From: Malacoraja senta
Lineage: Eukaryota
DNA: 60,000 nucleotides
Reading direction: 5' to 3'
Assembly (NCBI GenBank): GCA_038087875.1
Contig: CM075990.1
Coordinates: 10,728,001 to 10,788,000, forward strand
Part shown: piece after piece, positions 1 through 53,958 of the stretch
Position numbering within the stretch: position 1 is the stretch's first letter
Layout of the letters: each line of letters opens with the position of its first letter
Translations under genes and position numbers: made by a program
Notes under the pieces: model-generated
Databases searched by the model: none
What the model saw: only the letters and a program-made list of their open reading frames with translations
Told to the model about the DNA's origin: nothing

Positions 1-1618
1 ATCCTCCAAAGGTTCTCATCACGGCGGGGAGCGGTTGATCCGCATGGTTCGAAATGTGCTACGCTGTCTTAAACAACAAGTTCTGGACGACGAAGGATTG
101 CAAACTTTATTCTGCGAAGTTGAAGCGATTTTAAATGATCGACCTATTACTACGAGTTCTGATGATCCGAACGACCTGGAAGCACTTACACCAAATCATA
201 TTCTTCTGTTGAAGGCCAATCCAACACTACCAACTGGACTCTTTGTGAAAGAAGATTTGCATATAAGAAACAGATGGAGACAAGTACAATATATAGCGAT
301 GTTACAAAACCTACCTTCAGCGGCGCTACAGTTCTGCCACTGGCTGTGTGTGCGCCTTTGAGGGGGGGGGGGGGGGATTAAAATGCAGGTTTGTATCGCT
401 TGCCGGAGACGGATTTCCTCGGGCTGCTAGTCGATGAAAAATCGATCGGACTTCCGTTCCCGTTTTTTTTTGTAAAAAACCCGCTGGACAATTTAATTGT
501 TGGATTAAAGTAAAAAGCGACTTCGAACGCCCTCAACGCTTACAACGTGACGGATCATAATATCAGGACAAAACAAAAGGTATATCGTATATTTCACATA
601 TAATCTTCTTGGGGTGGCTTTAATCTAATTTTATGTCGTGAAAATGTTATTTGGGCCCCATATGAACTGGCAGTGTCTTTCCTGCCGATATGAGGTTAAA
701 ATTCACGGCAACGGCAACGTTCCAATCGATCGCATTCCAGAAACACCCACTCGCAAGATGATTTAAATCCTCTTTTTTTTTGTGGACAATCATGTCATAA
801 GAGCATCTAAATCGTCTATATTTTGTATTATTGTCTATCCATAGTCAATATTTTTATACTAAATATCCACAACAGTTTTAGCCACATGTATTGTGCAAAA
901 AATAATAATTTTGATTATATTGAGAGTGGATGTTTCTAGATTAATTTATGGGAATTAAACATTAAATTCCTTCCATATGGCATATAAATTCATGACAGTG
1001 AGATTTAAAAATCATATTATAGTGAATCCTTGTGTAAATGGGATTAGTTAGTTATTTGGATACATAGACTATTAAAAAAATTATCCTTTTCTTAAGAAAT
1101 GGATAGATGTTTAGATCTAGTAATTGAATTTAGATGAATTTAATTGATTAGATGAATTTAATTAATTTGATGAAACTGATGAATATGATTTTTTTGTTGG
1201 GTATTTATTATTTGTTTTAGCATTTAACTTTATCATTTCTACCTTTTTTCTAAAACTGCAAATAATAACTTGTTTCTGTTAATGCTGTTCAGCGTTTTTT
1301 TTCCTTTACATTTTAAACAGATGTCTCCGAAGAAAAAATGCAGAATTGTCAATCCAAATGCCCAGCAAAAGAGACTGATTTAGACAGCATTCGCAGAGAT
1401 TATCTGAATTTGGACTACTCCAAATGTGATGATCTACAGGACATTCTTAATGGGAAAGTAGTGGGCAGAAAGGCATGTAATGCGTGGTTTGAAGAGCAAA
1501 AACTTGTAGTTTACAATGCCAAAATTGAAAAGTTGAGGAAAAACAAGGTGTACAGAGTTGCTTATTGGTTACAATCTGAGGAGTATGATGATGCTACTGA
1601 TTATGATATGCCAATGTA

Positions 1619-3717
1619 ATAATAATAATAATAATAGATTTTATTTTAAGGGCGCCTATACAGAAGTCTCTAGGACACCTTACAATTTAACAAAGAAACC
1701 CAGTAGATGTATTGGACGAGGCAATGCAGATAAAAGCGGAATCAGCAAACTTAATATCATATTTGTATAATATTATTTTAAATGTACAAATACCACCTAC
1801 GGAGGGTATCAGAAGAGACTGGGAACAAGAGTTAGCTATTAAAATTTCAAAGGAAAGTTGGAATGAATACTTATTAAACGTGCATAAATGCTCGATTAAT
1901 GTAAGACACACTTTAATACAATTTAAAATTTTACATAGATTATATTATTCGAAAACTAAAATTCATAAAATTTTCCCAAACGTATCATCTATTTGTGATA
2001 AATGTCAATCCCAAGAAGCTACTATAGCGCACTCATTCGTCTTCTGTACAAAAATTCAAAAATTTTGGAATGAAATTTTTGAAATCTTTACAAAGTTATT
2101 TAAAACAAGACTGATACCCAAAGCAGAATGGATTATCTTCGGAATAACGGAAGATGATCCAGAACTAAATGTGTTTCAAAAGAAATTAATGGACTATGGG
2201 TTAATAACCGGAAAAAAGCTAATTCTAAAATTTTGGAAGAAGGCTCCAATACCAACTATAAATATGTGGATTTCAAATATGTTTGAAACATTACACCTAG
2301 AAGAGATAAGACTCCTCCTAGCAGGTAAACCAGATCACTTCCACCTGACGTGGTCTGCATTTATAGAATTATTACAAACATAGGGTGCAAAAGTACTTAA
2401 AAAAAAAAAAAAATTGAGGTCAGGTAAGGGGGGATGATAGTTGAAGAGTTGGTATGTCCTATTTACGTAATACTCAAAAAAAAAATTTTTTTTTTCTTTT
2501 TTCCTCTTTCTCTTTTTTTTCCTAGGGCCTATCTCTTAACTCTTTTTTTTTTTTTTTAGTTTTTAATTTCGCTCTTATAGGGTCTTCGTCCTTTTTTGTT
2601 GTTACATTTTCTACACTTTTCTACACGTTCACTTTTTCCTTCACTTTCTTCTTTCTTTCAATCTTTTCCTTTTCTAGTGTAAAAAAAATAAATAAAGGGA
2701 GTACATTAATTGTAAGAAGATACAAATGACGAGTATTAATGTATGTGGTTGTAATGTAATGTACTTGTAATAAATAAAAATTAAAAAAATAATAATAATA
2801 AAAAAAAACAATTTAACAAAGAAACATATAAACATATAATCAGAGTAAAATAAGTTATAAAGACATCACAAATACATAAATTAAAAACAGAAATTTGATC
2901 CAAAGAAAACAACAAAATTCAGAAAACACAATATGAAGGGAGAGCAGCGGCAGCCAAACCGCGCCAGCGTACACTCTCCCTTCCGACTGCCATGTTGGAC
3001 ATAGACTAACACAGACACTTAACACTACACACAAAATCATCCCCCCACAATGGTTACCACTGTGGGGGAAGGCATAATGTCCAGTCCCCAACCCAGTTCT
3101 CCCCAGAGTCAGGCCCATCGAGGCCGCCACAGTTGCCTCTACGGAGGCCCGATGTTCCTGGCCGTCGGGAGAGTCCTTGCAGCGGCTGGAACGGCCGGTT
3201 TCCCAGCGGAGTCCATGGCACCTGAAGCCGACAGGGCCGCGCCGATTTGGAGCCACGAGGCTCCCGATGTTAAAGTCGGTGCCGCCGCCCGCAGCTGGTC
3301 GCTCCGCAGACCGGCAGCCCAGAGGTGTTGATCTCGGCGGTCATCGCATACCGGAGCTCCAGCACGTCGATCCAGCGTGGCGACCCAGGCAAGGCATCGC
3401 CCGCTACGCTCCACGATAGCGCTCCAGCACTGTGCCGCCGACCGAAGCTGAAGGTGCTGGGCGGTCTCCGTCAGGAAACGGCGCTCCATGCCCGCTGGTA
3501 GGCCACGAGGACGGGTCGACGGGGCAGCCCGGAGAAAAAGCTGCCTCACCGACCAGGTAGGGACCTAGGATATAATTACCCCATTCACCCTACACTTAAA
3601 AGTAGAATAGTCCCACACACTGGACAATGGACACACTAAAACTATTTTAAAAAAAGGTGATTTAAACGGACGGCTGCTGGTTAGCAGCCGTTCCCCAACA
3701 TGTAGATGGGACTAGTG
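1619..3717 (-). mobile_element. Non-coding GC-rich retroposon with a (TTA)n LINE-type 3' tail, interrupted by L1
   Basis: (AAT)n plus TTTTATTTTAAGGGCGCC at 1619-1660 is the reverse of a LINE tail; apparent 5-bp duplication ATGTA (1614-1618, 3718-3722); no recognisable ORF. Confidence 0.6.
1700..2808 (+). mobile_element. 5'-truncated L1 LINE (ORF2 C-terminal cysteine-rich domain, 3'UTR, poly-A)
   Basis: ORF 1712-2383 contains QFKILHRLY...CDKC...TIAHSFVFC..IQKFW; AATAAA and A-rich tail; 17-bp TSD CAATTTAACAAAGAAAC at 1683-1699 and 2809-2825. Confidence 0.9.
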
Positions 3718-4693
3718 ATGTACCAGCTAGCAACTGATCTTCTCCATAAAGACTTGGTCTATTGCTAGAAATTGTAATTTTTATACCTATCTGTTACGGA
3801 CCTACAGCATATAATACAATAATATTAAAGTTCTGATCTTGAGAATATCACATTTTTGAATTTTTAAGGCAGTCTGGGTGTTTATTACCATTTCCGTCAC
3901 AACGGTCAATTTTGTAATTAGCTACAACTAGGTAACTAGCTAACTATGCTTTAATTTCAGGTCATCCAAGTAAGATGTTTTATATTTGTTTCAGAATGCT
4001 TCAATCTATAATAACTGAAAATTTCATTCAGTTCTCTTAATTTTTAAGAAAGTTATGGGCTTTTGACTGTCCTCGATCACAGCTTTTGTGTTAAGTCATA
4101 ATAATAGGGAACAAGATGCTAATTTCTGAGTATGAAAATGGCCATAACTTTTTTAATACTGAAGATATGAAAGTGAATTAGGTGTCAAATTAAACTTCTT
4201 TTGATGCTTTGATGGGATAAATTGCAGACTTGATTATTAAAGTCTCAACATTTTGTAACATTGCTACAATATATGGCAGATCTTTTTTGGAAGAGATGGA
4301 CAGAAGAATAATTGCCTCTGATCCAAAAGCGACAACGATGATCGAGGGTTAGAAGACATTTTGTCCCAGGTGATATTGTTTTGGTGGTTGATTCTACTGC
4401 ATCACGAGGTTCTTGGTTGATGGGAAGGATACTGGAGATCATGCCTGACGTTAAGGGTTTGGTGCGCACAGTACGACTTCAGACTAAGAATAATGTTTTA
4501 ATAAGACCAATAACCAATGCTTGCTTCTAGAAGGCGAAGGTGAAGATTGAAGAATCGCTAAAGAAGTCTGAATGCTAATATATGATGCATGTTATTTTTT
4601 AGTTTTTTGACATATGTTAAGCTTTTATAGCTCCTTTTTTAATGTCTATTAGTAATTGCCTCGTTATATACTCAGAACAATTAGGGGCCGGTA

Positions 4694-5124
4694 TGTAGTA
4701 GCCATTTAGCTTAACTCGGTATGTTATAACTATAACCCAGTTACCTTCAAATTTAACTGCCTGTAATTATGTGGGTGGGATTTATACGTCTGACGAGTGT
4801 TTGCAGCTGGGATTCTCGTGCAGACTCCCTAGTTTGAAGAAGCATGGGGAAGAGGTCACAGCTTTTGACAACGCATGAGTTTGACCATGAGTAATATCAA
4901 AATGTACTTATACAAGAAGAAGTTTGGATGAATATCTTACTGTTTTACTACTACAATAAATAAACTATTAATCAATAGACTATGTTTGGAAGATTTATCT
5001 TTCGACGGCATTGAATGTTTCGTGGAGAGCTCGTGAGTGTTTCGATTATCTCCTGATCCCCTGTCTTCAATCATAGTGACTAAAGGAAAGATTCCTTAAA
5101 ACGATATTGAAATCTGTCACTACA
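4694..5124 (+). repeat. 3' LTR of the BEL/Pao element
   Basis: Preceded by the PPT-like TTAGGGGCCGGTA; termini TGTAGT...ACTACA are inverted; internal AATAAA. Confidence 0.8.
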
Positions 5125-5799
5125 CTGTAGAGTATGACATTAATGAACGTATAGAGTGAGAATGTCTGACGAGTCTTTGTGCAGTTTTTGCTTTTAATAT
5201 ACTTTTATTCTGAAGTTAATTATTGGAAAAAAAGTACCTGGTGGGATAAGGCAGTGGAGAAGTCTCTTATTTAGACACCTGTTCCCAAATGTTTGCAAGT
5301 AAACCTTTTTCAACTGGGATAGGAACAACTGTGTTCAAATTCGTTGGTAGGTTGCTTGCTTATTTTAATGCAAATAAATGGTTTGTGTTTTAGAGGACAG
5401 TTAAAATTATTGCTACTGATCTGGAATCACATGTCATACATTAGAGACACTGATGAATTTTATGTGGTTACCGTTATATAGAATAATTTTAAATTACAAA
5501 TTATTAATCCGAATTTAAAATTCACAGCTGCAATGGTAGGACTTGTTCATACTCCCACTTGTCTAGAAACTCAACCACCACCAAATTTGTACGTTTTCTT
5601 TTGTTTTGCATAGTTGAACCCCCTCGCTCGAGAAAGCACGTTCAGTTTGATTTTTTCTGCTCCATTGATCCCACCCAGTTTTATTAAGCAAAGGCAGAAC
5701 CATTTCAACGCAGAGGTGACTCGGATAGAAATTTACAATAGGATTCATCAGCTTTATCCGACCAAGTGACACAGAGCAGGTGATAACTTGTCCTACATT

Positions 5800-6910
5800 G
5801 CCACGTCTCTGGCGACGAAATCAATACCGACGGTTGGTTTTAATTTGTTTTTGTGCGTGGGGAAATTTGGGTCTTTTGTAATTCGCCCCCCGCCCCCCGG
5901 TAACCTATCCTCCCCTGCTCTGATCAATTTACTTTGCTGATAGTCTGGGTTTGTATTTTCAAATGGGTTTTGCGAGAGCCAGAGAGCTTCCCTTTCCTGC
6001 TCCATGCACAGGATTAACGCCGGACGACAAGGATCTATAGACCCCTTTGCCGCGCAGCAGACGAGGTAAGCACAACACGCTATTAAATATGTTTTACAAA
6101 TAAACAATAGTGGGTTCACTTGACAAGAACGAATCTTGTTCAACGCTCCTCCGCAAAGAAAACAAATTACATCGGCAACTCAGACTTATCTCTGATACCT
6201 TGTTGTGGATGTTAGAGGTTTTTGTTGCCGCCATATTTTTAAAATATGAACAATTGTATTTTATTGATAAAAATTGTGGTCATTTATTTCGTTTGCTAAA
6301 AATAAATTTCGGTGAGAATGGGAACACTCGGCCTAGGAGCTTCATCGTGTGTTTTACGCGTTTCTTTTTCTAAGCCTCCAGGTTTTGTCTTTATTTTTTA
6401 AGTGTTTGTAAATAGAGAGGAAGGGGGAGGGGTGTGTTTTGTTTAAGTCGCCGATTCATTCTGCTCGCCGTTCTGAGCAAAGATACTAGAGTAAGAGTAT
6501 CTGGTTCTGAGGAACAGTTGGGAGGCGATGCACCCGCTGCCTGAATAAAAGCTGTAACGGCCTCGCAACTCCGCGTGTAAATGTATAAACAGTAAAACAA
6601 AACAAAAAAAGCAAATTCTAATTGCGGAATTAAGAATGCTTACCGTGCGGAGTTGTTCAGAAGATGCGGGTTTTTTTGTGCGTGTGTTGGGGAGAGGGTG
6701 GTAGATGGGAGGACTGTGAGTCGAGGCCCTGTGCGAGCCGCTCCTGGGAGACGGTTGAGCGGGGCCGCTCGAGCTCGCGGTTTGAACGACGCCGCGTTCC
6801 ATTCGGCAGAAGGTGCCGACCGTTAAATGAAGGACGAAAGCGGAGGGAGAGTGAGCAGGCAGTTTTTACAAAGGTACTAAACAAGCGAGGAAAATGTTCT
6901 GAGGTGAGCG
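5800..6910. promoter_or_regulatory. CpG-rich promoter/first-exon region, probably of MACROH2A2 and possibly bidirectional
   Basis: Apparently unique CpG-dense sequence with GC boxes (about 5885); splice donors on + (6066 GTAAGC, 6904 GTGAGC) and on - (6643 GTAAGC). The macroH2A2 ATG exon has an upstream acceptor, so a non-coding exon 1 is required. Confidence 0.5.
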
Positions 6911-7337: not shown

Positions 7338-7821
7338 TCCTCCTTAAACATAAGCTCGCAAACTAAATAAAAGTACATAAGACGAAAGCTTACGAACATC
7401 ACAATATAAGGATGTATACATTAACTAAAACAACAGCTAAAGCAGTGGAGGATACGAAATGAGCAAGATGAATATAAGGAAACGAAGAAGACCTTAATCA
7501 ATTAAAATCCGTGATAAGTGTCTAAACACAGTCTTTGTACTTGGGGTTGGGCTTACAAATCCGTCCCGCACGCGTGCTCTTTGCAGGTGATAGCACTGCA
7601 GATGGTGGTTCAGTCAGCACTGGTTCCGCAAGAGTCTTTTCCACAGGTGACTTTATAGGTGATTTCGCCATCGGCACCAGCGGTTCCTTCGCCGGTGTAA
7701 AGACCAACTCGCGGTCTGCTGATACCTGTCCCCCATTCAAACCAACGGTCTCTCCATCAGTCCATAACACGCCATCTGGGACATCCGTGTAACCATACAA
7801 ATACTGCTGAGATGGCACCGG

Positions 7822-10800
7822 TTTTCATACTCGGAAATTAGCATCTTGTTTCCTATTGCTTTTCCATTGACTTAACACAAAAGCTGTGATTGACGACAGT
7901 CAAAAGCCCATAACTTTCTTAAAAATTAAGAGAACTGAATGAAATTTTCAGTTATTATAGATTGAAGCATTCTGAAACAACTATAAAACATCTTATTTGG
8001 ATGACCTGAAATTAAAGCATATATTTAGTTCGTTACCTAATTGTAGTAAATTACAAAATTGACCATTGTGACGGAAATAGTAATAAACACCCAGACTGCC
8101 TTGAAAATTCAAAAATGTGATATTCTCAAGATCAGAACTTTAATATTATTGTATTATATGCTGTAAGTCCGTAACAGATAGGTAAATAAATTACAATTTC
8201 TAGCAATAGACCAAGTCTTTAGTGTAAATAAGTAATTTCCACAATCTGAAGTTCAAGATCATCTTTAATCAGTACCCATATTATAATGGTACAGCAGGTC
8301 ATTAGTTGTTAGTTCATCGTGACCGCTTCCAAGACTGACTAGTGTAGGAAGTGGGTGTTAGTATAAATCATACAGTAAGGTGGGGTTAGTGATGCTATTC
8401 TACTATGATTGGTTCACATGCATAAACCAATCTACATTCTTCCCCGTAAAGAGTGAATATGGTTAAACACACATGCCGTAAGAATTCAAACATACTCGCC
8501 ATATATGTCGGGCGGTCTACTAATACGGCCCGAACGCGTACGGACCAAGCCATCTCCCCCTTCGCCAGAAAAATTAGGAGGCGGTGAACCCAGAAGTGAG
8601 AAAGCAGCAGGGGACACCCGTGGACCGACAGGGGGAGCATGCAGGAGAGGTAGTTTTGTGGTTAGTCATAGCCGCCGGTCGTGGTGGGGTAAGGGACATG
8701 CTGGAACTGGTGGTGGACGCGGCAGTAGACGGCCGGAACAGTAGAGGTGGAGCGAAAGGATCAGCTGGTGATGAACGTGGCTCCTTCACAGCCAGCAAGT
8801 GTTGGTGGCTCCGACGGTACAGGGCGCCATCGATGTCAACAAGGTAGGATCGGGCTTCTTCAGACGGGCTGACCGCAACCTAGACGGGAATGTCCCACAG
8901 TAGTTTGTAAAAGAACGACTTGGCCCGGTAGTAGTGGCGTAAGTGGTCTGCTGGACTTGTCATGAGAATGTTTCTGTATGTCGTGTTTCTCCTGAATGCG
9001 CTTCTGGATCGTAGCTGGCTTCAGCACCTGTGGCACCAGCTTCTGCTGGGCAATCGGTATCGGAGGTCTTGTCATCCTGGACATCAGTCGCTGGGCCGGT
9101 GAGCCCAGGATCCCGTCTCTAGCAATGTTCCTGAGGTTTAAGAGGTCGAGATACACATCTGACTTGGCTAGGTGGGTGCGTTCCATTAGCTGTTTAGCGC
9201 TTCTGACGGCTCGTTCAGCGAGCCCGTTACTTTGTGGGTATTCGGGGCTGCTCGTGACATGGTGGAAATTCCATCGGTTAGCAAAGTGTTTGAAGGCGTG
9301 ACTGGTAAATTGTCTTCCGTTGTCAGTCTGCAAACGGACAGGTGCGCCGAATGTGGAGAAGTGTTTCTGTAGCTTTTGAATGACCATCTCTGATGTGATA
9401 GAAGGCAGTAAGTCAAGCTCGAACCAGTTAGAATAGGAGTCAACTAGGACTAGTTAATGTTTACCGTGCCACTCGAAAATGTCTGCCGCCAGCGACGTCC
9501 AGGGCAGTGCTGGTGGTGGTTGTTGCAGCAGGGGCTGTCTCTGTTGGTGCATCGCCAGGCTGTTTTGTGGGAACAAAGTCAATGCTGGGAACCGTAAACA
9601 CGTCCCGTTCGTAGGGGTGTCGTTCGTTGGATGCCCGTGGTGCGCGAGAGAGGGTATCAGCCACGAGCATGTCCTTGCCCTTTTTGTAAACAATCTTGAA
9701 GTCAAATCGCTGGAGTTGCATCATCATACGCTGCAGACATGCAGGTGCTGCGTGGATAGGTTTGTTGAGGATAGTCACCGGGGGATGGTGGTCTGTCTCG
9801 ACCGTGAAAACATTCCCAAAGACAAAGTCCTTGAATTTAAAACAAGCGAAGACCACAGCCAGCAGCTCTTTCTCAATTTGCATGTTGCGCTGTTCGGTGT
9901 CGGTCATGGTGCGGGAGGCATAGGAGACAGGACGTAAAGTCCCATCGGCTGATGGTTGTAGGCAGGCGGCACCGAGTCCATATCGTGAGGCATCGCAGGT
10001 AACTGTCATGGTCGAAAAATGTCAAGGTGGGATCGCTGGTCAGCCTCGATTTTAAAGCATCAAATGCTTTTTGGTGTTGCTGGAACCAGGACCAGGCAGT
10101 ATCCTTTCGAGTTAGTTGTCTCAGAGGCGAACTCAGTTCACTGAGGTTCGGTATGAACTTTCCCAGATAGTTCACCATACCCAGGAATCGCTGCAGGCTA
10201 AACACGTCGGTGGGGGCTGGCATCTCTGTGATGGCAGCAGTTTTTTTCGGATCTGGTCTGAGACCACCAGGGGTGAAAACATGTCCGACATAGGTGACCT
10301 CTGGAACCCTGAACTTGCACTTGTTAGGGTTGAATCAGGATTCCGCAGTAACTCTGTCCTTAGCTTCTGATCATTCATCCCAGAAACTAGTTTATCCCTT
10401 ATCAGCTCATTCGTCATGGTTTCGAATCGGCACCTTTGAGCCATGTATCGCAAATCACAAATAAATCTCTCTACCGGCTCATCAGGAAGCTGGTGTCTCG
10501 CGAAGAATTTGGTTCTTTCTAAAATGCGGTTCGACAGTAGGTCACATATCTCACGGAATTTACACAGTAAAACATTAGGGTCATGCATAGACTCGGCAGG
10601 CACAAACTACCTGATCATTGTCGTCTTGGACGGCTGGTGCGTATTCAAACGTCCGAGCTCTCATCATGGCCTCGGGTCCCGCAAGGTTAAGTAGGAGGGA
10701 AGCCTTGACAGCGTCTGGTTCATTTCGGTGGACGATATTGATGTAGTGTCCGTAATCAATCCGTAGTCCGTAATCCGCCATCACTCGCCGATGTCGGAAT

Positions 10801-12454
10801 CAAAGATAAGCTGTGCAGGCTTTCTGCATGATTGAGCCATAGTGAAGCAAGGGGAAAAAAACTGATAAACAGAAATAAAACCCGGTAAACGGACGCAGTG
10901 GATTACTCCAAGTTATCTGACACCATGTAAATAAGTAATTTCCACAATCTGAAGTTCAAGATCATCTTTAATCAGTACCCATATTATAACGGTGCAGCAG
11001 GTTGTTAGTTCATCGTGACCGCTTCCAAGACTGACTAGTGTAGGAAGTGGGTGTTAGTATAAATCATACAGTAAGGTGGGGTTAGTGATGCTATTCTACT
11101 ATGATTGGTTCACATGCATAAACCAATCTACAGAGAAGATCAGTTGCTAGCTGGTACATTGGCATATCATAATCAGTAGCATCATCATACTCCTCCGATT
11201 GTAACCAATCTGTACACCTTGTTTTTCCTCAACTTTTCAATTTTGGCATTGTAAACTACAAGTTTTTGCTCTTCAAACCACGCATTACATGCCTTTCTGC
11301 CCACTACTTTCCCATTAAGAATGTCCTGTAGATCATCACATTTGGAGTAGTCCAAATTCAGATAATCTCTGCGAATGCTGTTGAAATCAGTCTCTTTTGC
11401 TGGGCATTTGGATTGACAATTTTGCATTTCTTCTTCGGAGACATCTGTTTAAAATGTAAAGGAAAAATAACACTGAACAGCATTAACAGAAACAAGTTAT
11501 TATTTGCAGTTTTAGAAAAAAGGTAGAAATGATCAAGTTAAACGCTAAAACAAATAATAAAATACCCAACAAAAAATTCATATTCATCAGTTTCAAATCA
11601 ATAAAATTCATCTAATCAATTAAATTCATCTAAATTCAATTACAAGATCTAAACATCTACCCATTTCTTAAGAAAATTATTATTTTTTTAATAGCCTAAA
11701 TATCCAAATAATAAACTAATCCCATTCACACAAGAATTCACAATATAACATGATTTTTAAATCTCACTGTCATGACCATATGCCAGATGGAAGGAATTTG
11801 ATGTTTAATTCCCATACATTAATCTAGAAACATCCACTGAATATAATCAAAATTATTATTTTATGCACAATACATGTAGCTAAAACTGTTGTGGATATTT
11901 AGTATAAAAATATTGATTATGGATAGACAATAACACAAAATATAGACGATTTAGATGCTCTTATGACATGATTGTCCAAAAGAAAAGAGGATTTAAATCA
12001 TCTTGCGAGTGGGTGTTTCTGGAATGCGATCGATTGGAACGTTGCCGTGAATTTTAGGCAAAGACACTGCCAGTTCGTATGAGGACTAAATAACATTTTC
12101 GCGTCGTAAAATTAGATTAAAGCCACCCCAAGAAGCAAGATTATATGTGAAATAAACGACTTACCCTTTGTTTTGTCCTGATATTACGATCCGTCACATT
12201 GTAGGTGTTCGAAGTCGCTTTAATTACTTTAATCCAACTATTAAATTGTCCAGCCTTTTTTTTTAATTAAAAAAAAAACGGGAACGGAGGTCCGATCGAT
12301 TTTTTTTCATCAACTAGCAGCCCGAGGAAATCCCTCTCCGACAAGCAATACAAACCTGCATTTTAATCCCCCCCCCCTCAAAGGCGGCAAAGTCGTGCAC
12401 ACAGCCAGTGGCAGAACTGCAGCGCCGCTGAAGGTAGGTTTTGTAACATCGCTA
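7822..12454 (-). mobile_element. hAT-like (hATw-type) element, copy 2; one end deleted, interrupted by the inner Gypsy
   Basis: Reverse-complement match to 294-1618 and 3723-4140; TIR at 12439-12454; ORF 11185-11427 nearly identical to 1338-1619. Confidence 0.88.
8223..11132 (-). mobile_element. Gypsy LTR retrotransposon (inner), internally deleted and non-autonomous
   Basis: Near-identical LTRs 8223-8436 and 10926-11132 (TG..CA); PBS TGGTGTCAG; PPT GGGGAAGAA. gag is fused directly to mid-RT near 10335; RNase H (TCDASRYGLGA); integrase (TDNGRQF..SSPEYPQSNGLAERAV). Confidence 0.92.
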
Positions 12455-14781
12455 TATACGAGCATACCCCTTCTGGGTTTGCACGCGGACCGTCTGACCC
12501 TCCGATAGTGGCTGGAGTGGACGACTTGACTAGTCGTAATACACCTTCTGAATCTGTTGTTTGTATTGCAACTGAGCCTGAACTGCTTGAGGCTCGTAAA
12601 CGTGAGGTTGAAGTAGTTGCCTTGCAACGGGAAGAGTGGTGTGAATCTGTCTGAACATCAGACGTTGCACTGGCGAACCCAGCACCGGGTCGTGTGAAAC
12701 ATTGCGAAGATTAAGGAGGTCCAGGAATACATCGGACCCAGCTCTTTTGGATCTTTCCATGACTTGCTTCGCACTACGGACAGCTCTCTCGGCCAACCTG
12801 TTCGACTGCGGATACTCCAGGCTGCTGGTGATGTGTTAAAAATCCCAGCGCTTAGCAAAGTCTTTGAAACATTGATTAGCAAATTGTCCAGCATTATCCG
12901 ACATGAGGGTGAGAGGAGCCCCATGGACCAAGAAATGTCTCGCAAGTTTCTGAACTACCACCGCCGACAAAGTTGTGGGGAGCAAATCGATTTCGAACCA
13001 CCCGGAAATAGGAATCCACTAGGACTAGGTACTGATCACCGCGCCAATCGAAAATGTCAGAAGCCACTGTGGACCACGGTAAATCAGGAACCGTGTTTAG
13101 AGAAGTGGTTCCTTTTGTTGATGCGGTGTCAACCTGTTGCATACCGCGTACGATTGCGTCCTCTGGCGTAGTTCGACATAGCAGGCCAGCAAAACATACT
13201 TTTCACTCGTTGAACCGTTGCCTCTGTGCCAGGGTTTCCTCTATGTATAGCGTTGAAGTACTTCTGCTGTAGTGAAGCCGGGATCACCGCTTTGAGGCCT
13301 TTCATAATGACCCTGTTCTCGATTACCAGCTCATCTCTGATGGGAAAATATTGCTGCACGGTGAGTGGTAGCATATGCTAATTGTCTGACCATCAGCGTT
13401 GAGCGATGGACGCAAGTGTCTGTGAAGAGTTATCCTCAGCCTTGCGTGCCACTAACATGTCCAAACAGGATGAATGAATATAGTCGACCATCATCACATC
13501 AAAAATATCCTTCTCGTCTGCATGTCTGCCATCAGTTTTCCTGGGCGCACTGGACAGGGTGTCAGCCAGGTGCATGTCCTTGTCGCGCTTATAAATCAGG
13601 GTAATGTCGTACTTTTGGAGACGTAGCATCATTCTTTGCAGCCTCGCTGGGGCAGCATGTATCGGCTTATTCAAAATAGTAACTCAACGGTGATGGCCTA
13701 GCCGAAAATATAGTCATTGAATTTTTCGCACAAGAAAACTACTGCCAACAACTTTTTCTCGATTTGTGTGTATCGTATCTCTGTGTCTGTCATAGTCCTT
13801 GAGGCATAAGCAATAGGCTGGTTTTCTCCCTGCAGGCACGCTGCGCCGAGACCGTACTGGGATGCGTCGCAGGTCAACATAACTGGTTGATTGATGTCGA
13901 AATATGCAAGAGTGGGAGGGCATGACATCTGCTGTCTGAGAGTGTCGAAAGCTCGCTGCTGCTGCTCATACCACTTCCTTGTGAGTAAGTTGTCACAGTG
14001 GAGCCAAGAGTTCGCTAAAGTTCGGAATGAACTTGCCAAGATAGTTTACCATGCCCAGAAACCTCTGCAGGCTGGTGACATCAGTCGGCACTGCCATCTC
14101 GCTGATGGCTGCCGGCTTCGCAGGATCAGCTTTGAGGCCGTCGCTGGTGAAAACATGTCCCGCATAGTTCACCTTGTTGACACAAAACTTGCACTTATGG
14201 GGGTTGAGTTTCAAATGTACCTTCCTGGCACGATTGAGCACCTTTCTCAAATTGTCATCGTGCTCCTGCTTGTCCTTACCCACCACTATAATGTCATCAA
14301 CAACAATCGAACATAGGTATCCGTCAAAGATCTGCCCATAGTGCGTTGAAACACTTCGCTGGCCGAATTAATACCAATCGGCATCTGCAGAAATCTGTAG
14401 CATCCGAAAGATGTGCTGAAAGTAGTGAGCAGAGATGATTTGTCGTCCAGGGGGATTTGCCAGAACGAGCTCTTGGCATCTAGAACCGAGAACACTGTTG
14501 CCTTGCCCATGTGTGCGGCCACCTCCTCCACGGTGCGTATGGGGTGATGTCTCTTGAGTGCATGCAGTGTTTAAGTCCCTCGGGTTAATACAGATAGGTA
14601 TCTCTTGCTTGTTCTTCTTGGTAGCGGCTAACATCGAGGACACCCAGCCAGTGGGCTCCGTAACAGGAGTAATAACCCCCAGAGCTTCCATCCTTTCGAG
14701 CTCTGCCTTAACTCGGTCTTGCATCCTGGTCTGTAATCATCGAGTACGTGACAGGCAGCTTGCCAAGTTCGTCGTTAAAAA

Positions 14782-15570
14782 GATTAAGAGTCAAGAGTGT
14801 TTTATTGTCATATATCCCAGATAGAACAATGAAATTCTTACTTGCTGCAGCACAACAGAATATGTAATCATAATAAATAATATAACAAAAACTCAGAAAA
14901 AAAGAACAAACAATTACAGTGCAATAATAATAATAATAGTCTATTGTAGTTCATAGCTTTGTAGTGTTTAATAGCCTTATGGCTGTAGGGAAGCAGCTGT
15001 ACCTGAACCTGGATGTTACAGTTCTCAGGCTCCTGTACCTTCTTCCCGATGGCAGTGGTGAGATGAGTGTGGCCAGGATGGTGTGGGTCTTTGATGATGT
15101 TGGCTGCCTTTTTGAGGCAGCGATTACGATAGATCCCTTCGATAGTGGGGAACTCAGAGCCGATGATGGCCTGGACAATGTTTACAACTTTTTGCAGTTT
15201 TTTCCGCTCCTGGACGTTCAAGTTGCCAAACCAGGCCACGATGCAACCAGTCAGTATGCTCTCTACTGTGCACCTGTAGACGTTCAAGAGAATCCTCTTT
15301 GACATACCGAATCTCCGTAATCTTCTCAGGATGTAGAGGCGCTGATGTGCTTCCTTTATGATTGCATCAGTGTGCTGGGTCCAGGATAGATCGTCAGAAA
15401 TATGCACGCCCAGGAATTTGACGTTTTTGACTCTGCACCATCGTTCCATTAATGTAAACAGGATTGTGGGAACTCAACCTTCCTCTTCCAAAGTCCACAA
15501 TCAGTTCTTTGGTTTTGCTGATATTGAGACCTAGGTTGTTGTGCTGGCACCATATGGTCAGTCATTGTTA
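14782..15570 (-). mobile_element. Rex1/Babar LINE 3' fragment inserted in the outer Gypsy pol
   Basis: KFLGVHISDDLSW..HQRLY.LRRLRRFG...YRCTVESILTGCIVAW; tail GACAATAAAACACTCTTGACTCTT on minus. Confidence 0.88.
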
Positions 15571-21823: not shown

Positions 21824-21873
21824 GTAGACAAAAATGCGGGTGAGGCAGCATCTATGGAGCAAAGGAAATAGGC

Positions 21874-21901
21874 GACGTTTCGGGTCGAGACCCTTCTTCA
21901 G
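21874..21901 (-). ncRNA. Minimal hammerhead-ribozyme-like core in the Penelope pLTR
   Basis: Minus strand reads CTGAAGA-A-GGGTC-TC-GACCC-GAAACGTC. Confidence 0.6.
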
Positions 21902-22593
21902 ACTGATGTGAGGGTGGGGGGGGGGGGGGAGAAGAAAGGAAGAGGCGGAGACAGTGGGCTGAGGGAGACCTGGGAAGCGGAGGAGAAAGCAGGGACTACC
22001 TGAAATTGGAGGTCAATGTTCATGCCGCTGGGGTGTAAACTGCCCAAGCAAAATATGAGGTGCTGCTCCTCCAATTTACGGTGGGCTTCACTCTGGCCAT
22101 GGAGGAGGCCCAGGACAGAAAGGTTGGATTCAGAATGGGAGGGGGAGTTGAAGTGTTGAGCCACTGGGTGATCAGGTTGGTTATTGCGAACCGAGCGGAG
22201 GTGTTGGGCGAAGCAATCGCCAAGCCTACGCTTGGTCTCACCGATGTAGGACAGCTGACACCTAGAGCAGCGGATGCAATAGATGAAGTTGGAGGAGGTG
22301 CAGGTGAACGTCTGCCGCACCTGGAAAGACTGCTTGGGTCCTTGAATGGAGTCAAGGGGGGAGGTAAAGCGACAAGTGTAGCATTTCCTGCAGTTGAAAG
22401 GGAAAGTGCCAGGAGAGGGGGTGGTTTGGGTGGGAAGGGACGAATTGACCAGGGACATACGGAGGGTGCGGTCTCTGCAGTAAGCCAACAGGGAAGGAGA
22501 TAGGACGATGTGGCCAGTGGTGGGATCCCGTTGGTAGACAAAGCTGGAGAAAATCAGCGGGTGAGGCAGCATCTATGGAGCGAAGGAATAGGC

Positions 22594-22621
22594 GACGTTT
22601 CGAGTCGAGACCCTTCTTCAG
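22594..22621 (-). ncRNA. Minimal hammerhead-ribozyme-like core, second pLTR
   Basis: Minus strand reads CTGAAGA-A-GGGTC-TC-GACTC-GAAACGTC. Confidence 0.55.
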
Positions 22622-23849
22622 ACTGATGTCGGGAGGGGTGGGGCGGGAAAAAGAAAGGAAGAGGCAGAGATAGTAGGCTGTGGGAGAGCTAGGAATGGGA
22701 GGGGAAGGAGGGAGAAAGCAAGGACTACCTCAAATTGGAGAAGCAAATGTTCATACCGCTGGGGTGTAAACTACCCAAGCAAAATATGAGGTGCTGTTCC
22801 TCCAATTTGCGGTGGGCCTCACTCTGGCCATGGAAGAGGCCCAGGACAGAAAGGTCGGAATGGGAGCGGGAGTTGAAGTGCTGAGCCACCGGGAGATCAG
22901 GTTGGTTATTGCAAACTGAGTGGAGGTGTTGTGCGAAGCGATTGCCAAGCCTGCGCTTGGTCTCACCGAGGTTGATCATACGCTGAATAATCCAACCAGA
23001 TTTTTGTTTGGAAGTGGAAAGAGATAATAGAAATTGCATTAATTGCAATCTGTAAAAAGAGATGAGATACTGTATTGTAATTTTGCTGCATGTGATTGTG
23101 GTATATATCATGTCTTGATTGGTGAATATGTTTAGTTTGCGACTTTATTTGAAGCAGAAATAATATGTGAATGCTTTATTGACCATAATTCCGACTGGTA
23201 ACTACGCACTTCGTCCGAGCACATTATCGCACTCGTCATGCAAGCCATCTTAAATGACCACCTAAACTGTCATTTGGCAACCTAAAAAGCTGCCGAGGTT
23301 GCCCGGCTGGCAACAGGGAAAAAAAGTTAATTGAGAGCCCTGCCTTCTTCAGACTGATTCAGAGGCCAAGTTGTTGGGTATATTTAAAGGAGATGGGCAG
23401 ATTTTTGATTACGGATGCCAAAGATTATGGGGTGAGGGCAGGAGAATGGGGTTGAAAGGGAAAGATTGAATGGTAGAGTAGACTCGATAGGCCAAATGGC
23501 CCAATTCTGCTCCTATGACGTGAACATGATGTCATTTTGTGCAGTTTCCTCCATTGTCTGTATCAAGTGGAGCTTTAGGGTGCAAACTGTGACATTCATT
23601 GAATACTTTGAAAATAAAACAGAAAAGTATACAGTGATTGATATTTAAAGCTGTAATTATAGATAGATCAAATGGGTGGGAAATAAATGTGGTCTATTTT
23701 AGTAGGAAAAGTAATCCAAAATAATTTTAGCTGGGCTATTGACATTAAAATTCTGATTCAGGAATGCAGCTGGTCAGGCAGACCTTTCAACCATTCCAAC
23801 TGCTTTTCTTTACACATGCTGCCTGACCTGAGTTTATGTGGAGAATACT

Positions 23850-24644: not shown

Positions 24645-24740
24645 GATACACAAAAAGGCCGGATAAACTCAGCGGGTGCAGCAGCATCTATGGAGCGAAG
24701 GAAATAGGCAACGTTACGGGCCGAAACCCTTCTTCAGACG
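24645..24740 (-). mobile_element. Solo Penelope-type pLTR
   Basis: AACTCAGCGGGTGCAGCAGCATCTATGGAGCGAAGG..CCCTTCTTCAGAC. Confidence 0.75.
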
Positions 24741-53120: not shown

Positions 53121-53958
53121 GATGGGGATGAGTCAGAGTATAGAAGAGAGATCGAGCAACTGTCCATATGGTGCCAGCACAACAACCTGGCCCTCAACAC
53201 CAGCAAAACCAAGGAACTGATTGTGGACTTTGGAAGGAGTAGGATGGGGACCCACAGTCCCGTTTATATCAACGGGTCGATGGTTGAAAGGGTCAAGAGC
53301 TTCAAATTCCTGGGCGTGCACATCTCTGAAGATCTTTCCTGGTCCGAGAACAATGATGCCATTATTAAGAAAGCACATCAGCGCCTCTACTTCCTGAGAA
53401 CATTACGGAGAGTTGGTTTGTCAAGGAGGACTCTCTCTAACTTCTACAGGTGCACAGTAGAGAGCATGCTGACCGGTTGCATCGTGGCTTGGTTCGGCAA
53501 CTTGAGTGCCCTGGAGAGGAAAAGACTACAAAAAGTAGTAAACACTGCCCAGTCCATCATCGGCTCTGACCTCCCTTCCATCGAGGGGATCTACCACAGT
53601 CGCTGCCTCAAAAAGGCTGGCAGCATCATCAAGGACCCACACCATCCTGGCCACACACTCATCTCCCTACTACCTTCAGGTAGAAGGTACAGGAGCCTGA
53701 AGACTGCAACGACCAGGTTCAGGAACAGCTACTTCCCCACAGCCATCAGGCTATTAAACCTGGCTCGGACATAACACTGAACTTTACTAGCCAATACTGT
53801 TATTTGCACTTTATCAGTATATTGACCATTGTGTATATATTTATAGAATGCCTTGTAGTAAATGCCTACTATGTTCTGTTGTGCTCAAGCAAAGCAAGAA
53901 TTTCATTGTCCTACCAGGGACACATGACAATAAACTCACTTGACTTGACTTGACTTGA
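53121..53958 (+). mobile_element. Rex1/Babar LINE 3' fragment
   Basis: ORF 53223-53774 (SFKFLGVHISEDLSW..YRCTVESMLTGCIVAW); (ACTTG)n tail. Confidence 0.92.

Follow-up and report, generated by a model that had tools for sequence, protein, structure and literature searches.

Short non-autonomous transposons in Malacoraja senta and a partner transposase with a predicted hAT fold and Spindlin-like Tudor domain

Two decayed copies of a short element

Does the stretch of 60,000 nucleotides of Malacoraja senta analysed here (hereafter the window) carry the remains of a transposon whose enzyme could read chromatin, and could these remains still encode a reader of their own? Both copies found in the window are dead and belong to a 1.9-kb, non-autonomous DNA transposon family present in high copy number. 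The TIR TAGCRATGTTACAAAA occurs at 294-309 (+), 4251-4266 (-) and 12439-12454 (-), three matches versus 0.13 expected, in line with the two copies of about 1.9 kb described in the initial annotation. Copy 1 is composed of 294-1618 and 3723-4266 (1,869 bp without its 2.1-kb insert), while copy 2 runs from 12454 to 11133 and from 8221 to 7822, with arms 90-93% identical to those of copy 1. The right end of copy 2 is missing and therefore no TSD is readable there, so that, as previously noted, it is visible in copy 1 only (CAATATA on both sides). The following features were annotated:

287..293 (+), left 7-bp TSD copy (CAATATA) of copy 1, from the sequence and the 7-bp rule across copies
294..309 (+), left TIR of copy 1, whose TAGCG-type left end belongs to the older subfamily
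294..1618 (+), left arm of copy 1, with left end, likely 5'-UTR intron, transposase start, deletion junction and most of the Tudor-coding DNA
580..1320 (+), predicted 5'-UTR intron (GT at 580, AG at 1319-1320), its donor decayed in copy 1
1321..1383 (+), ATG1 frame (MSPKKKC...), transposase codons 1-15 and then out of frame, with a stop after 20 codons
1338..1616 (+), ATG2 frame, 93 aa in copy 1, from 1368 equal to transposase residues 881 onward
1366..1367 (+), deletion junction, with transposase codons 16-880 gone and two extra bases shifting the frame
1619..3717 (-), 2.1-kb insert in copy 1, with a 5-bp ATGTA duplication at 1614-1618 and 3718-3722
3718..3768 (+), last 16 Tudor codons, covering the C-terminal helix and its D969 and D974 positions, severed by the insert
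3723..4266 (+), right arm of copy 1, 92% identical to the young autonomous element, with the right TIR at 4251-4266
4267..4273 (+), right 7-bp TSD copy (CAATATA) of copy 1, from the sequence
7822..8221 (-), right arm of copy 2, truncated, without right TIR
8223..11132 (-), LTR retroelement inside copy 2 (214-bp LTRs, RT_RNaseH E-value 1e-24)
11133..12454 (-), left arm of copy 2, with TIR at 12439-12454, a GTAAGT donor at 12164 and ATG1; its Tudor frame is frameshifted

The insert of copy 1 is a tailed repeat in which a second, poly(A)-tailed LINE 3' piece is nested (1700-2807), bearing 18-bp direct repeats and a zf-RVT match (E-value 5.8e-5) below the Pfam cut-off. The splice donor at 580 and the acceptor directly before the ATG at 1321 are present as annotated; across the short copies the donor is mostly AG/GTAAGT, the GTATAT of copy 1 being its decayed form. 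The 579/1321 joint was not seen in the RNA reads examined, no such joint being listed, and among the matches listed in the sequencing-run search no run holding the element was recorded as RNA.

Concerning the coding capacity, the 108-aa frame had been assigned to the MSPKKKC start codon and a stand-alone microprotein combining an NLS with a reader had been proposed, neither of which was borne out. ATG1 at 1321 closes after 20 codons and is out of frame with the Tudor frame in 50/52 distinct copies. The 108-aa frame begins at ATG2 (1338), a start codon that the Lys-Cys codons create incidentally 17 nt behind ATG1, and reads MQNCQSKCPA followed by transposase residue 881 onward, reaching 108 aa in uninterrupted copies. 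Compared with the autonomous element the deletion joins 2560 to 5156 with two letters in between, and of the exact places where the junction was found, 224 are out of frame and 4 in frame. In the window the frame is broken twice, as the insert cuts it short after 93 aa in copy 1 (where the Tudor barrel starts at about 1452) and a deletion shifts it in copy 2. Changes in the ATG2 frame of 45 distinct copies comprised 61 synonymous (62.0 expected), 182 non-synonymous (184.7 expected) and 16 stops (12.3 expected), an omega of 1.0. Since the frame starts at an out-of-frame ATG and decays neutrally, a free reader microprotein is unlikely as a trait of the family, judging from the sequences. That the short family is favoured as the source of such a peptide (108 aa from ATG2, or 112-113 aa with MSPKKKC in rare in-frame copies), which would compete with the transposase or the host Spindlin, seems to us very improbable. 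The frame is indeed unbroken in 20/45 distinct copies, poly(A) reads of a related organism map to it mostly in the sense direction, and three independent insertions carry a common, 2-nt shorter, in-frame junction, with an unbroken 112-aa frame in copy L218; this is opposed by the neutral substitutions, the indels in 17/45 copies, both broken window copies, the incidental origin of ATG2 and the prevailing out-of-frame junction.

The autonomous partner and its predicted hAT fold

A genome search for a full-length transposase, as proposed initially, led to an autonomous partner of 4.27 kb, whose 978-aa frame is open in 12/20 copies fetched. These copies are young, with a median divergence of 0.32% from their majority (30 copies). 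The TIRs are 16 bp long (TAG...CTA), short as in the hAT superfamily, and the TSD is exactly 7 bp in 33/34 and 9/12 long copies (42/46 in all) and in 14/19 short copies, with a target preference of CWWNWWG. The alternative 9-bp reading, named beforehand as a possible refutation, fits just 2/34 long and 2/19 short copies, while lopsided 8-bp readings fit 8-9/34 long and 5/19 short ones. The short copies would be moved in trans by the intact transposase, and they probably keep Tudor DNA only because it adjoins the right end.

The model of the 978-aa transposase (pLDDT 86.6) points to a hAT-fold enzyme. Foldseek returned Hermes (E-value 2e-6) ahead of the P element (9e-5), and VIA gave Hermes a Z of 18.4 (rmsd 3.5, 342 aligned), with ISCth4 as the next family at 10.9. 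The P element was not among the best 50 VIA matches, which does not by itself speak against P-type kinship; the THAP domain of the P element and of Galileo (7-8-bp TSD) had no Pfam match in the transposase. The hAT signature is a D-D-E triad with CxxH after the second Asp. In 121 sequences D429 (98%), D506 (99%), E784 (97%), C531 and H534 (both 100%) and W670 are kept at 97-100%, the catalytic roles being assigned by position, and thus the hAT motifs whose absence would have spoken against the annotation are there. The predicted core combines an RNase H fold bearing D429/D506/E784, the CxxH motif and a Hermes-like helical insertion domain. Apart from these shared features and the short TIRs, the element differs from Hermes (PDB 6dwz, 4d1q, 8sjd) in several respects: identity is about 10%, a helical N-terminal domain, a coiled coil and a long helix with Tudor tail are present, and the TSD is 7 bp instead of 8 bp. 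Neither a BED finger nor a hAT dimerisation domain of Pfam matched the transposase at E <= 10, and residues 18-108 model as helices; with BED and Pfam hAT domains missing, the enzyme is therefore hAT-like in working and not a canonical Ac/Buster-type member. The 108-aa peptide or the whole transposase as query against Pfam, PDB sequences and the Atlas gave nothing useful, and whole-length transposase profiles matched coiled coils only.

A 7-bp TSD is not the usual 8 bp of hAT elements. The subgroup described with 7-bp TSDs is hATw, to which the element may belong. The label (Repbase/Dfam) stands in repeat tables of Hydra and snail (PMC13465017, PMC6128900), kinds of host that also hold homologues of our element, and in the snail hATw is reported to be enriched in piRNA clusters (PMC6128900). 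Groups with 5-, 6- and 7-bp TSDs are described as accepted inside hAT, among them hAT7 of rust fungi, which has the 7-bp TSD as well; hAT7 is described as grouping with Ac/Tam3-type elements of fungi and plants and as bearing TET/JBP (PMC12730594).

A predicted Spindlin-like Tudor domain

The last 70 residues of the transposase are predicted to form one Tudor barrel, kept in homologues from sponge to vertebrate. The Tudor model reached a pLDDT of 84.9 (93-98 over residues 31-108) and shows a barrel, then a helix and a last strand; a 58-residue helix would keep the barrel apart from the core. The domain is complete in 84/108 homologues holding the core and incomplete in 24/108, most ending early (gene models as given). 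It ends 10 residues or fewer from the C-terminus in 127/139 proteins, and none of the 139 has a second copy.

A Spindlin-like C-terminus of an internally deleted hAT-like element with 7-bp TSD had been annotated, and the element part stands with the autonomous partner and the Hermes-fold model, while the likeness to Spindlin is backed by profile and Foldseek searches and not by Pfam, as Spin-Ssty (PF02513) matched 0/61 domains at E <= 1. Specifically, Foldseek placed Spindlin1 first (E-value 0.024). A profile of the 61 domains against 177,635 PDB sequences listed 20 matches led by 17 Spindlin chains, the best E-value of 7.7e-4 adding over Spindlin's repeats (best single repeat 0.2). Repeat 1 of the host Spindlin scored 14.2 bits with the domain profile, reached by 0/1000 shuffles, and repeat 3 scored at shuffle level. 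Additionally, hhalign paired Spindlin repeats and the domain over 59 columns including the C-terminal helix (P 1e-5 to 5e-5). The repeats of Spindlin 1-4 (Spin/Ssty; PDB 4uy4, 4mzg, 5jsg; PF02513) share with the domain the barrel with C-terminal helix, the VG..xH.W start and, by prediction, the cage positions and the D184/D189 equivalents. The transposase, however, has one domain where Spindlin has three tandem repeats, at 14-18% identity and below the Pfam cut-off, with about ten extra residues before strand 4, and it combines zero net charge in this element with a basic, lysine-rich beta3 hairpin, whereas the Spindlin surface is acidic.

It is possible, although we doubt it, that the domain is a methyl reader no nearer to Spindlin than to the Tudors of PTM/DIR17/RDM15 or BAHCC1, the likeness reflecting deep Tudor-clan ancestry and telling nothing of Spindlin's origin. 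The shared motifs VG..xH.W and MYQL..D...DL can be read in this way, and the Pfam matches were PTM/DIR17 (6/61, best 1.1e-4) and BAHCC1 (4/61) Tudors. In VIA, Spindlin-4 (Z 7.0) was tied with plant RDM15, whose rmsd of 1.8 is lower, followed by TraI and BAHCC1 (6.3-6.6), and a Z of 7.0 is in the range that VIA calls common. On the other hand, RDM15, BAHCC1 and SMN chains were within the PDB set and yet, of these families, Spindlins alone stood among the matches listed for the domain profile, to which the Foldseek rank and the hhalign alignment through the C-terminal helix can be added.

Spindlin1 is described with a cage of F141, W151, Y170 and Y177 and the H3-tail-anchoring acids D184, D189 and E142 (PMC3967050). 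The positions predicted to match this cage, W920, Y929, Y946 and (F,Y)959, are all aromatic in 57/61 domains: three are aligned by the profile and aromatic in 61/61, and the fourth (959, 57/61) depends on strand register, as hhalign pairs Y177 with P962 instead, which is never aromatic. D969 (61/61) and D/E974 (60/61) align with D184 and D189, and the position of E142 is acidic in 1/61. The sequences establish the TIRs, the 7-bp TSD with CWWNWWG, an autonomous partner, a deletion that is out of frame, the neutral decay of the remaining frame and a family-wide C-terminal domain. We hold it as reasonably probable that the window copies are two dead 1.9-kb internal-deletion derivatives of an element whose 978-aa transposase, with a predicted Hermes fold, ends in a Spindlin-like Tudor domain. 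This domain is likely to bind a histone tail carrying methyl marks, and would thereby tether the transposition complex to chromatin. It would work within the full enzyme, several subunits possibly giving the multivalency for which Spindlin has its three repeats in tandem.

Less probable still than shared Tudor-clan ancestry, and in our view unlikely, is a Tudor fold whose ligand is not a histone mark but another subunit of the transposase, the target DNA or a methylated protein other than a histone. Integrases and TnsB, for instance, use SH3-like tails in assembly and in binding DNA. Non-reader barrels (TraI, CarD, TnsB) reach VIA Z 4.9-6.6, the domain has its lysine-rich hairpin, and Spindlin repeat 3 is described as binding the non-histone partners SPINDOC and HBx (PMC10400593). 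Complex prediction of the domain with the unmethylated H3 tail (1-35), alignment not used, scored 0.01 and weighs neither for nor against histone binding. Flanks of young insertions gave no target bias: CpG-island-like flanks in a first set (13/32 versus 25/118 control pieces, p 0.038, one among six comparisons with three pieces per control stretch) were not repeated in a second (3/9 versus 18/59), and GC, CpG and a repeat proxy showed no reproducible difference from controls in the two sets. Against this reading, conservation across phyla extends to all four cage positions and to both aspartates that would anchor the tail, in the proportions given above, and the structures of the three best eukaryotic matches (Spindlin-4, RDM15, BAHCC1) contain methyl-histone peptides.

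Readers in mobile elements and the origin of Spindlin

Reader-guided integration is known from chromoviruses, and a Tudor domain that is a constant C-terminal part of an entire DNA-transposase clade would extend it to cut-and-paste elements. Gypsy-10_Ec32 was called the first Tudor-bearing transposable element to be reported (2025; PMC12477816), and hAT-Chromo fusions were described in a sponge (bioRxiv 2021.11.30.470311). Like chromovirus integrases, these join a chromatin-reader fold to an integrating enzyme, but they are retroelements or narrow Chromo/PHD fusions, whereas the Tudor domain described here sits on a DNA transposase across a clade from sponge to vertebrates. The main text of the sponge report has no word starting with 'spin', and a literature search linking Spindlin, transposase and Tudor brought up a single, unrelated review. 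A chromatin-steered transposase would be of interest to gene-delivery work. The window copies in themselves are ordinary fossils; the near-identical autonomous copies with an open 978-aa frame make binding and targeting directly testable.

A bolder proposal is that an animal-wide hAT lineage reads methylated histone tails through a single Spin-type Tudor domain to choose its landing chromatin, and that vertebrate Spindlins arose by capture and triplication of the transposase domain; we consider it a long shot, which, if true, would mean that a host reader of transposon chromatin itself came from a transposon. The PF02513 family search of the genome returned the host Spindlin gene only. Spin/Ssty proteins are described as vertebrate (PMC3967050), while carriers of the Tudor domain are found among proteins of sponge, cnidarian, mollusc and echinoderm, which turns the question of where Spindlin came from into a testable one.

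Window copies and their autonomous partner

The terminal inverted repeat (TIR) pattern has three matches in the window against 0.13 expected, confirming the two-copy, TIR-bounded element of the initial annotation:

294-4266: copy 1, 1,869 bp without its insert, CAATATA on either flank
1619-3717: 2.1-kb insert splitting copy 1, with its own 5-bp duplication
12454-11133 and 8221-7822, minus strand: copy 2, interrupted by an LTR element, right end missing

The 108-aa frame ends early in copy 1, at 93 aa, and is shifted by a deletion in copy 2. The insert at 1619-3717 is itself nested. Its outer part, a repeat on the minus strand, has a (TTA)n-type tail and a 5-bp duplication; inserted into it is the 3′ piece of a poly(A)-tailed LINE, flanked by an 18-bp duplication. 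Both parts recur at other loci (91-97%). Both copies are embedded in decayed LTR-retroelement coding regions (1-293 and 4274-4560 for copy 1; 7560-7821 and 12455-14700 for copy 2), presumably BEL-like and Gypsy-like, respectively; Pfam matched nothing in the pieces of these flanks that were tried. More dispersed and tandem repeats occupy 21831-22972, 24655-24739, 14784-15562 and 53159-53945, among them a 420-bp duplication (86% identical) and a LINE piece with an ALKBH8_N-type match.

The genome (1.94 Gb) contains a Spindlin gene with three repeats. A first look at it gave 1,590-2,701 places for parts of the element, which are candidates rather than copy numbers; the 25-base deletion junction matched exactly at 224 places. 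Two longer database proteins with the same terminal domain supplied a probe for the deleted interior, and this probe found 150 scored places. The full-length transposase sought in the genome was thereby recovered: a 978-codon frame, running from MSPKKKCKIVNPKAQ to LLLKDLVFC within a 4.27-kb element, is open in 12 of 20 fetched loci. Median divergence from the majority is 0.32% for 30 full-length copies versus 4.6% for 13 short ones. In the short element, codons 16-880 are missing and two additional bases at the joint throw the tail out of frame. Identity to the young long family is 96% in the right part but drops to 68-79% in the left. The TAGCG left end of the short element also occurs on older long copies (loci L180, L188, L191 and L120, the last matching at 83% along the entire left arm), so its parent is an older subfamily. 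The identical deletion joint is present in sequencing runs of three other organisms. A second deletion family of ~1 kb without coding DNA (locus L056, 2360-2362 joined to 5592-5595) was observed in runs of all related organisms examined. Additionally, locus L058 has a young long copy with a second left TIR, in the opposite direction, 337 bases past its right end (5880-6217).

Class of the transposase and its target sites

The element is a real, ancient hAT variant. Its transposase matches no Pfam family and no PDB sequence. It has 130 homologues (34-75% identity), and 1,853 representatives match at E <= 0.001; named hosts are a sponge, Hydra, molluscs, a brachiopod, a priapulid, a sea spider, echinoderms and teleosts. 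One sea-spider homologue (P0075) carries the annotation bric-a-brac 2 and a BTB domain, and would be a fusion or the product of merged gene models. The predicted model (pLDDT 86.6) has an N-terminal domain made of helices, a coiled coil, an RNase H core that carries a helical insertion, a helix of 58 residues and, at the end, a barrel. The N-terminal helical domain (residues 18-108; L056:2567-2840) has a pLDDT of 87-97 and no Pfam match. The proposed hAT-like identity was borne out, as Foldseek placed Hermes first, then the P element, and structural alignment (VIA) gave Hermes a Z of 18.4 versus 10.9 for the next family. D429, D506, C531-x-x-H534 and E784 are almost invariant, presumably as the functional positions known from hAT, and the model indicates that the transposase works like an hAT. 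However, the BED finger and the 8-bp target site duplication (TSD) of hAT are absent.

The 7-bp reading of the TSD was upheld. Among copies with both ends present, it is exact in 33/34 and 9/12 long copies (60 loci examined) and in 14/19 short copies (70 loci examined), or 18/19 allowing one mismatch; the 9-bp alternative fits only 4/53. The candidate subgroup is hATw, a hAT group with 7-bp TSDs. The consulted parts of PMC13465017, PMC6128900 and PMC4455052 carry this label, or 7-bp hAT entries, without a definition, and a fungal hAT group with a 7-bp TSD is named hAT7 in PMC12730594. The 51 sites give a palindromic target consensus, CWWNWWG, with C1/G7 at 59% and A/T at positions 2 and 6 at 90%. 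GC, CpG and repeat content of insertion flanks showed no difference from controls, in small samples (32 and 9 sites) and with sequence being a poor proxy for histone marks. A CpG-island-like flank excess at young insertions in the first set failed to recur in the second. The repeat proxy showed no preference of young long copies for embedding in retroelements.

The terminal Tudor domain

The model of the 108-aa peptide is confident at residues 31-108. The proposed Spindlin-like C-terminus stood in part. Spindlin1 tops the Foldseek list with weak E-values (0.024), and a 61-domain profile, picked from 85 script-extracted domains, returned 20 rows at E <= 10 led by 17 Spindlin chains (best 7.7e-4, aided by summing over repeats). 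On the other hand, VIA tied Spindlin-4 with RDM15 at Z 7.0, followed by TraI and BAHCC1, and Pfam recognised Spin-Ssty in none of the 61 domains, a few of which instead matched the Tudors of PTM/DIR17 and BAHCC1. Against the host Spindlin repeats, the 85-domain profile scored 14.2 bits (equalled by 0 of 1000 shuffles), 8.7 bits (by 2) and 0.1 bits (by 447), and hhalign gave 67-83% probability across 59 columns.

The Spindlin repeat-2 cage consists of F141/W151/Y170/Y177, with E142, D184 and D189 as tail anchors, as described in PMC3967050. In the transposases, W920, Y929 and Y946 are aromatic in 61/61 domains and position 959 in 57/61, its pairing with Y177 being register-dependent; D969 is kept in 61/61 and D/E974 in 60/61, whereas the equivalent of E142 is not acidic. 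Each of the 139 proteins bearing the domain has one copy, at the end of the chain, and its conservation (0.54) is similar to that of the insertion domain (0.59). We read its conserved positions as a retained putative ligand pocket, and the predicted ligand would most likely be a methylated histone tail; the domain is probably a reader. Chromo and PHD readers on mobile elements, including hAT-Chromo fusions in a sponge, are described in bioRxiv 2021.11.30.470311, and a Tudor on a Gypsy element is termed the first such case in PMC12477816. Among the papers listed by our literature search, none dealt with a Spindlin-like domain in a DNA transposase. The present work contributes intact young copies, a TSD table, the junction frame, a neutrality test and the residue-level comparison.

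The leftover frame and the intron

The single 108-aa frame opening with MSPKKKC proved to be two frames merged: the frame from ATG 1321 reaches a stop after 20 codons, and it is ATG 1338 that opens the 108-aa frame. Evidence went against a stand-alone reader microprotein, since ATG 1321 is out of frame with the terminal domain in 50/52 copies and omega is 1.0. Specifically, in 45 distinct short copies (51/60 loci cover the frame) stops number 16 versus 12.3 expected, a neutral pattern expected of any inserted copy, and the test would overlook a single exapted one; indels occur in 17 and the 108-aa frame is unbroken in 20. An in-frame junction, 2 nt shorter, occurs at four places representing three independent insertions (L218, L219/L220 and L221; 83-91% alike), and L218 (G000:C1:71277544-71280566) holds an unbroken 112-aa MSPKKKC+Tudor frame.

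The donor is conserved as AG/GTAAGT in short copies and kept at the same place in the diverged young family (AAAG/GTAAAC), which argues for a real 5′-UTR intron in the ancestor. Poly(A) reads from a related organism (6% of its run, at 85% likeness) are mostly sense, continue across the intron and cover the transposase core 1-4x. The predicted 579/1321 splice joint was absent among the 15 joints shown of 19 in this run. Finally, in one contig from a presumed RNA run, 58 unrelated letters are attached to a long element at its acceptor position, an isolated and weak hint of acceptor use.
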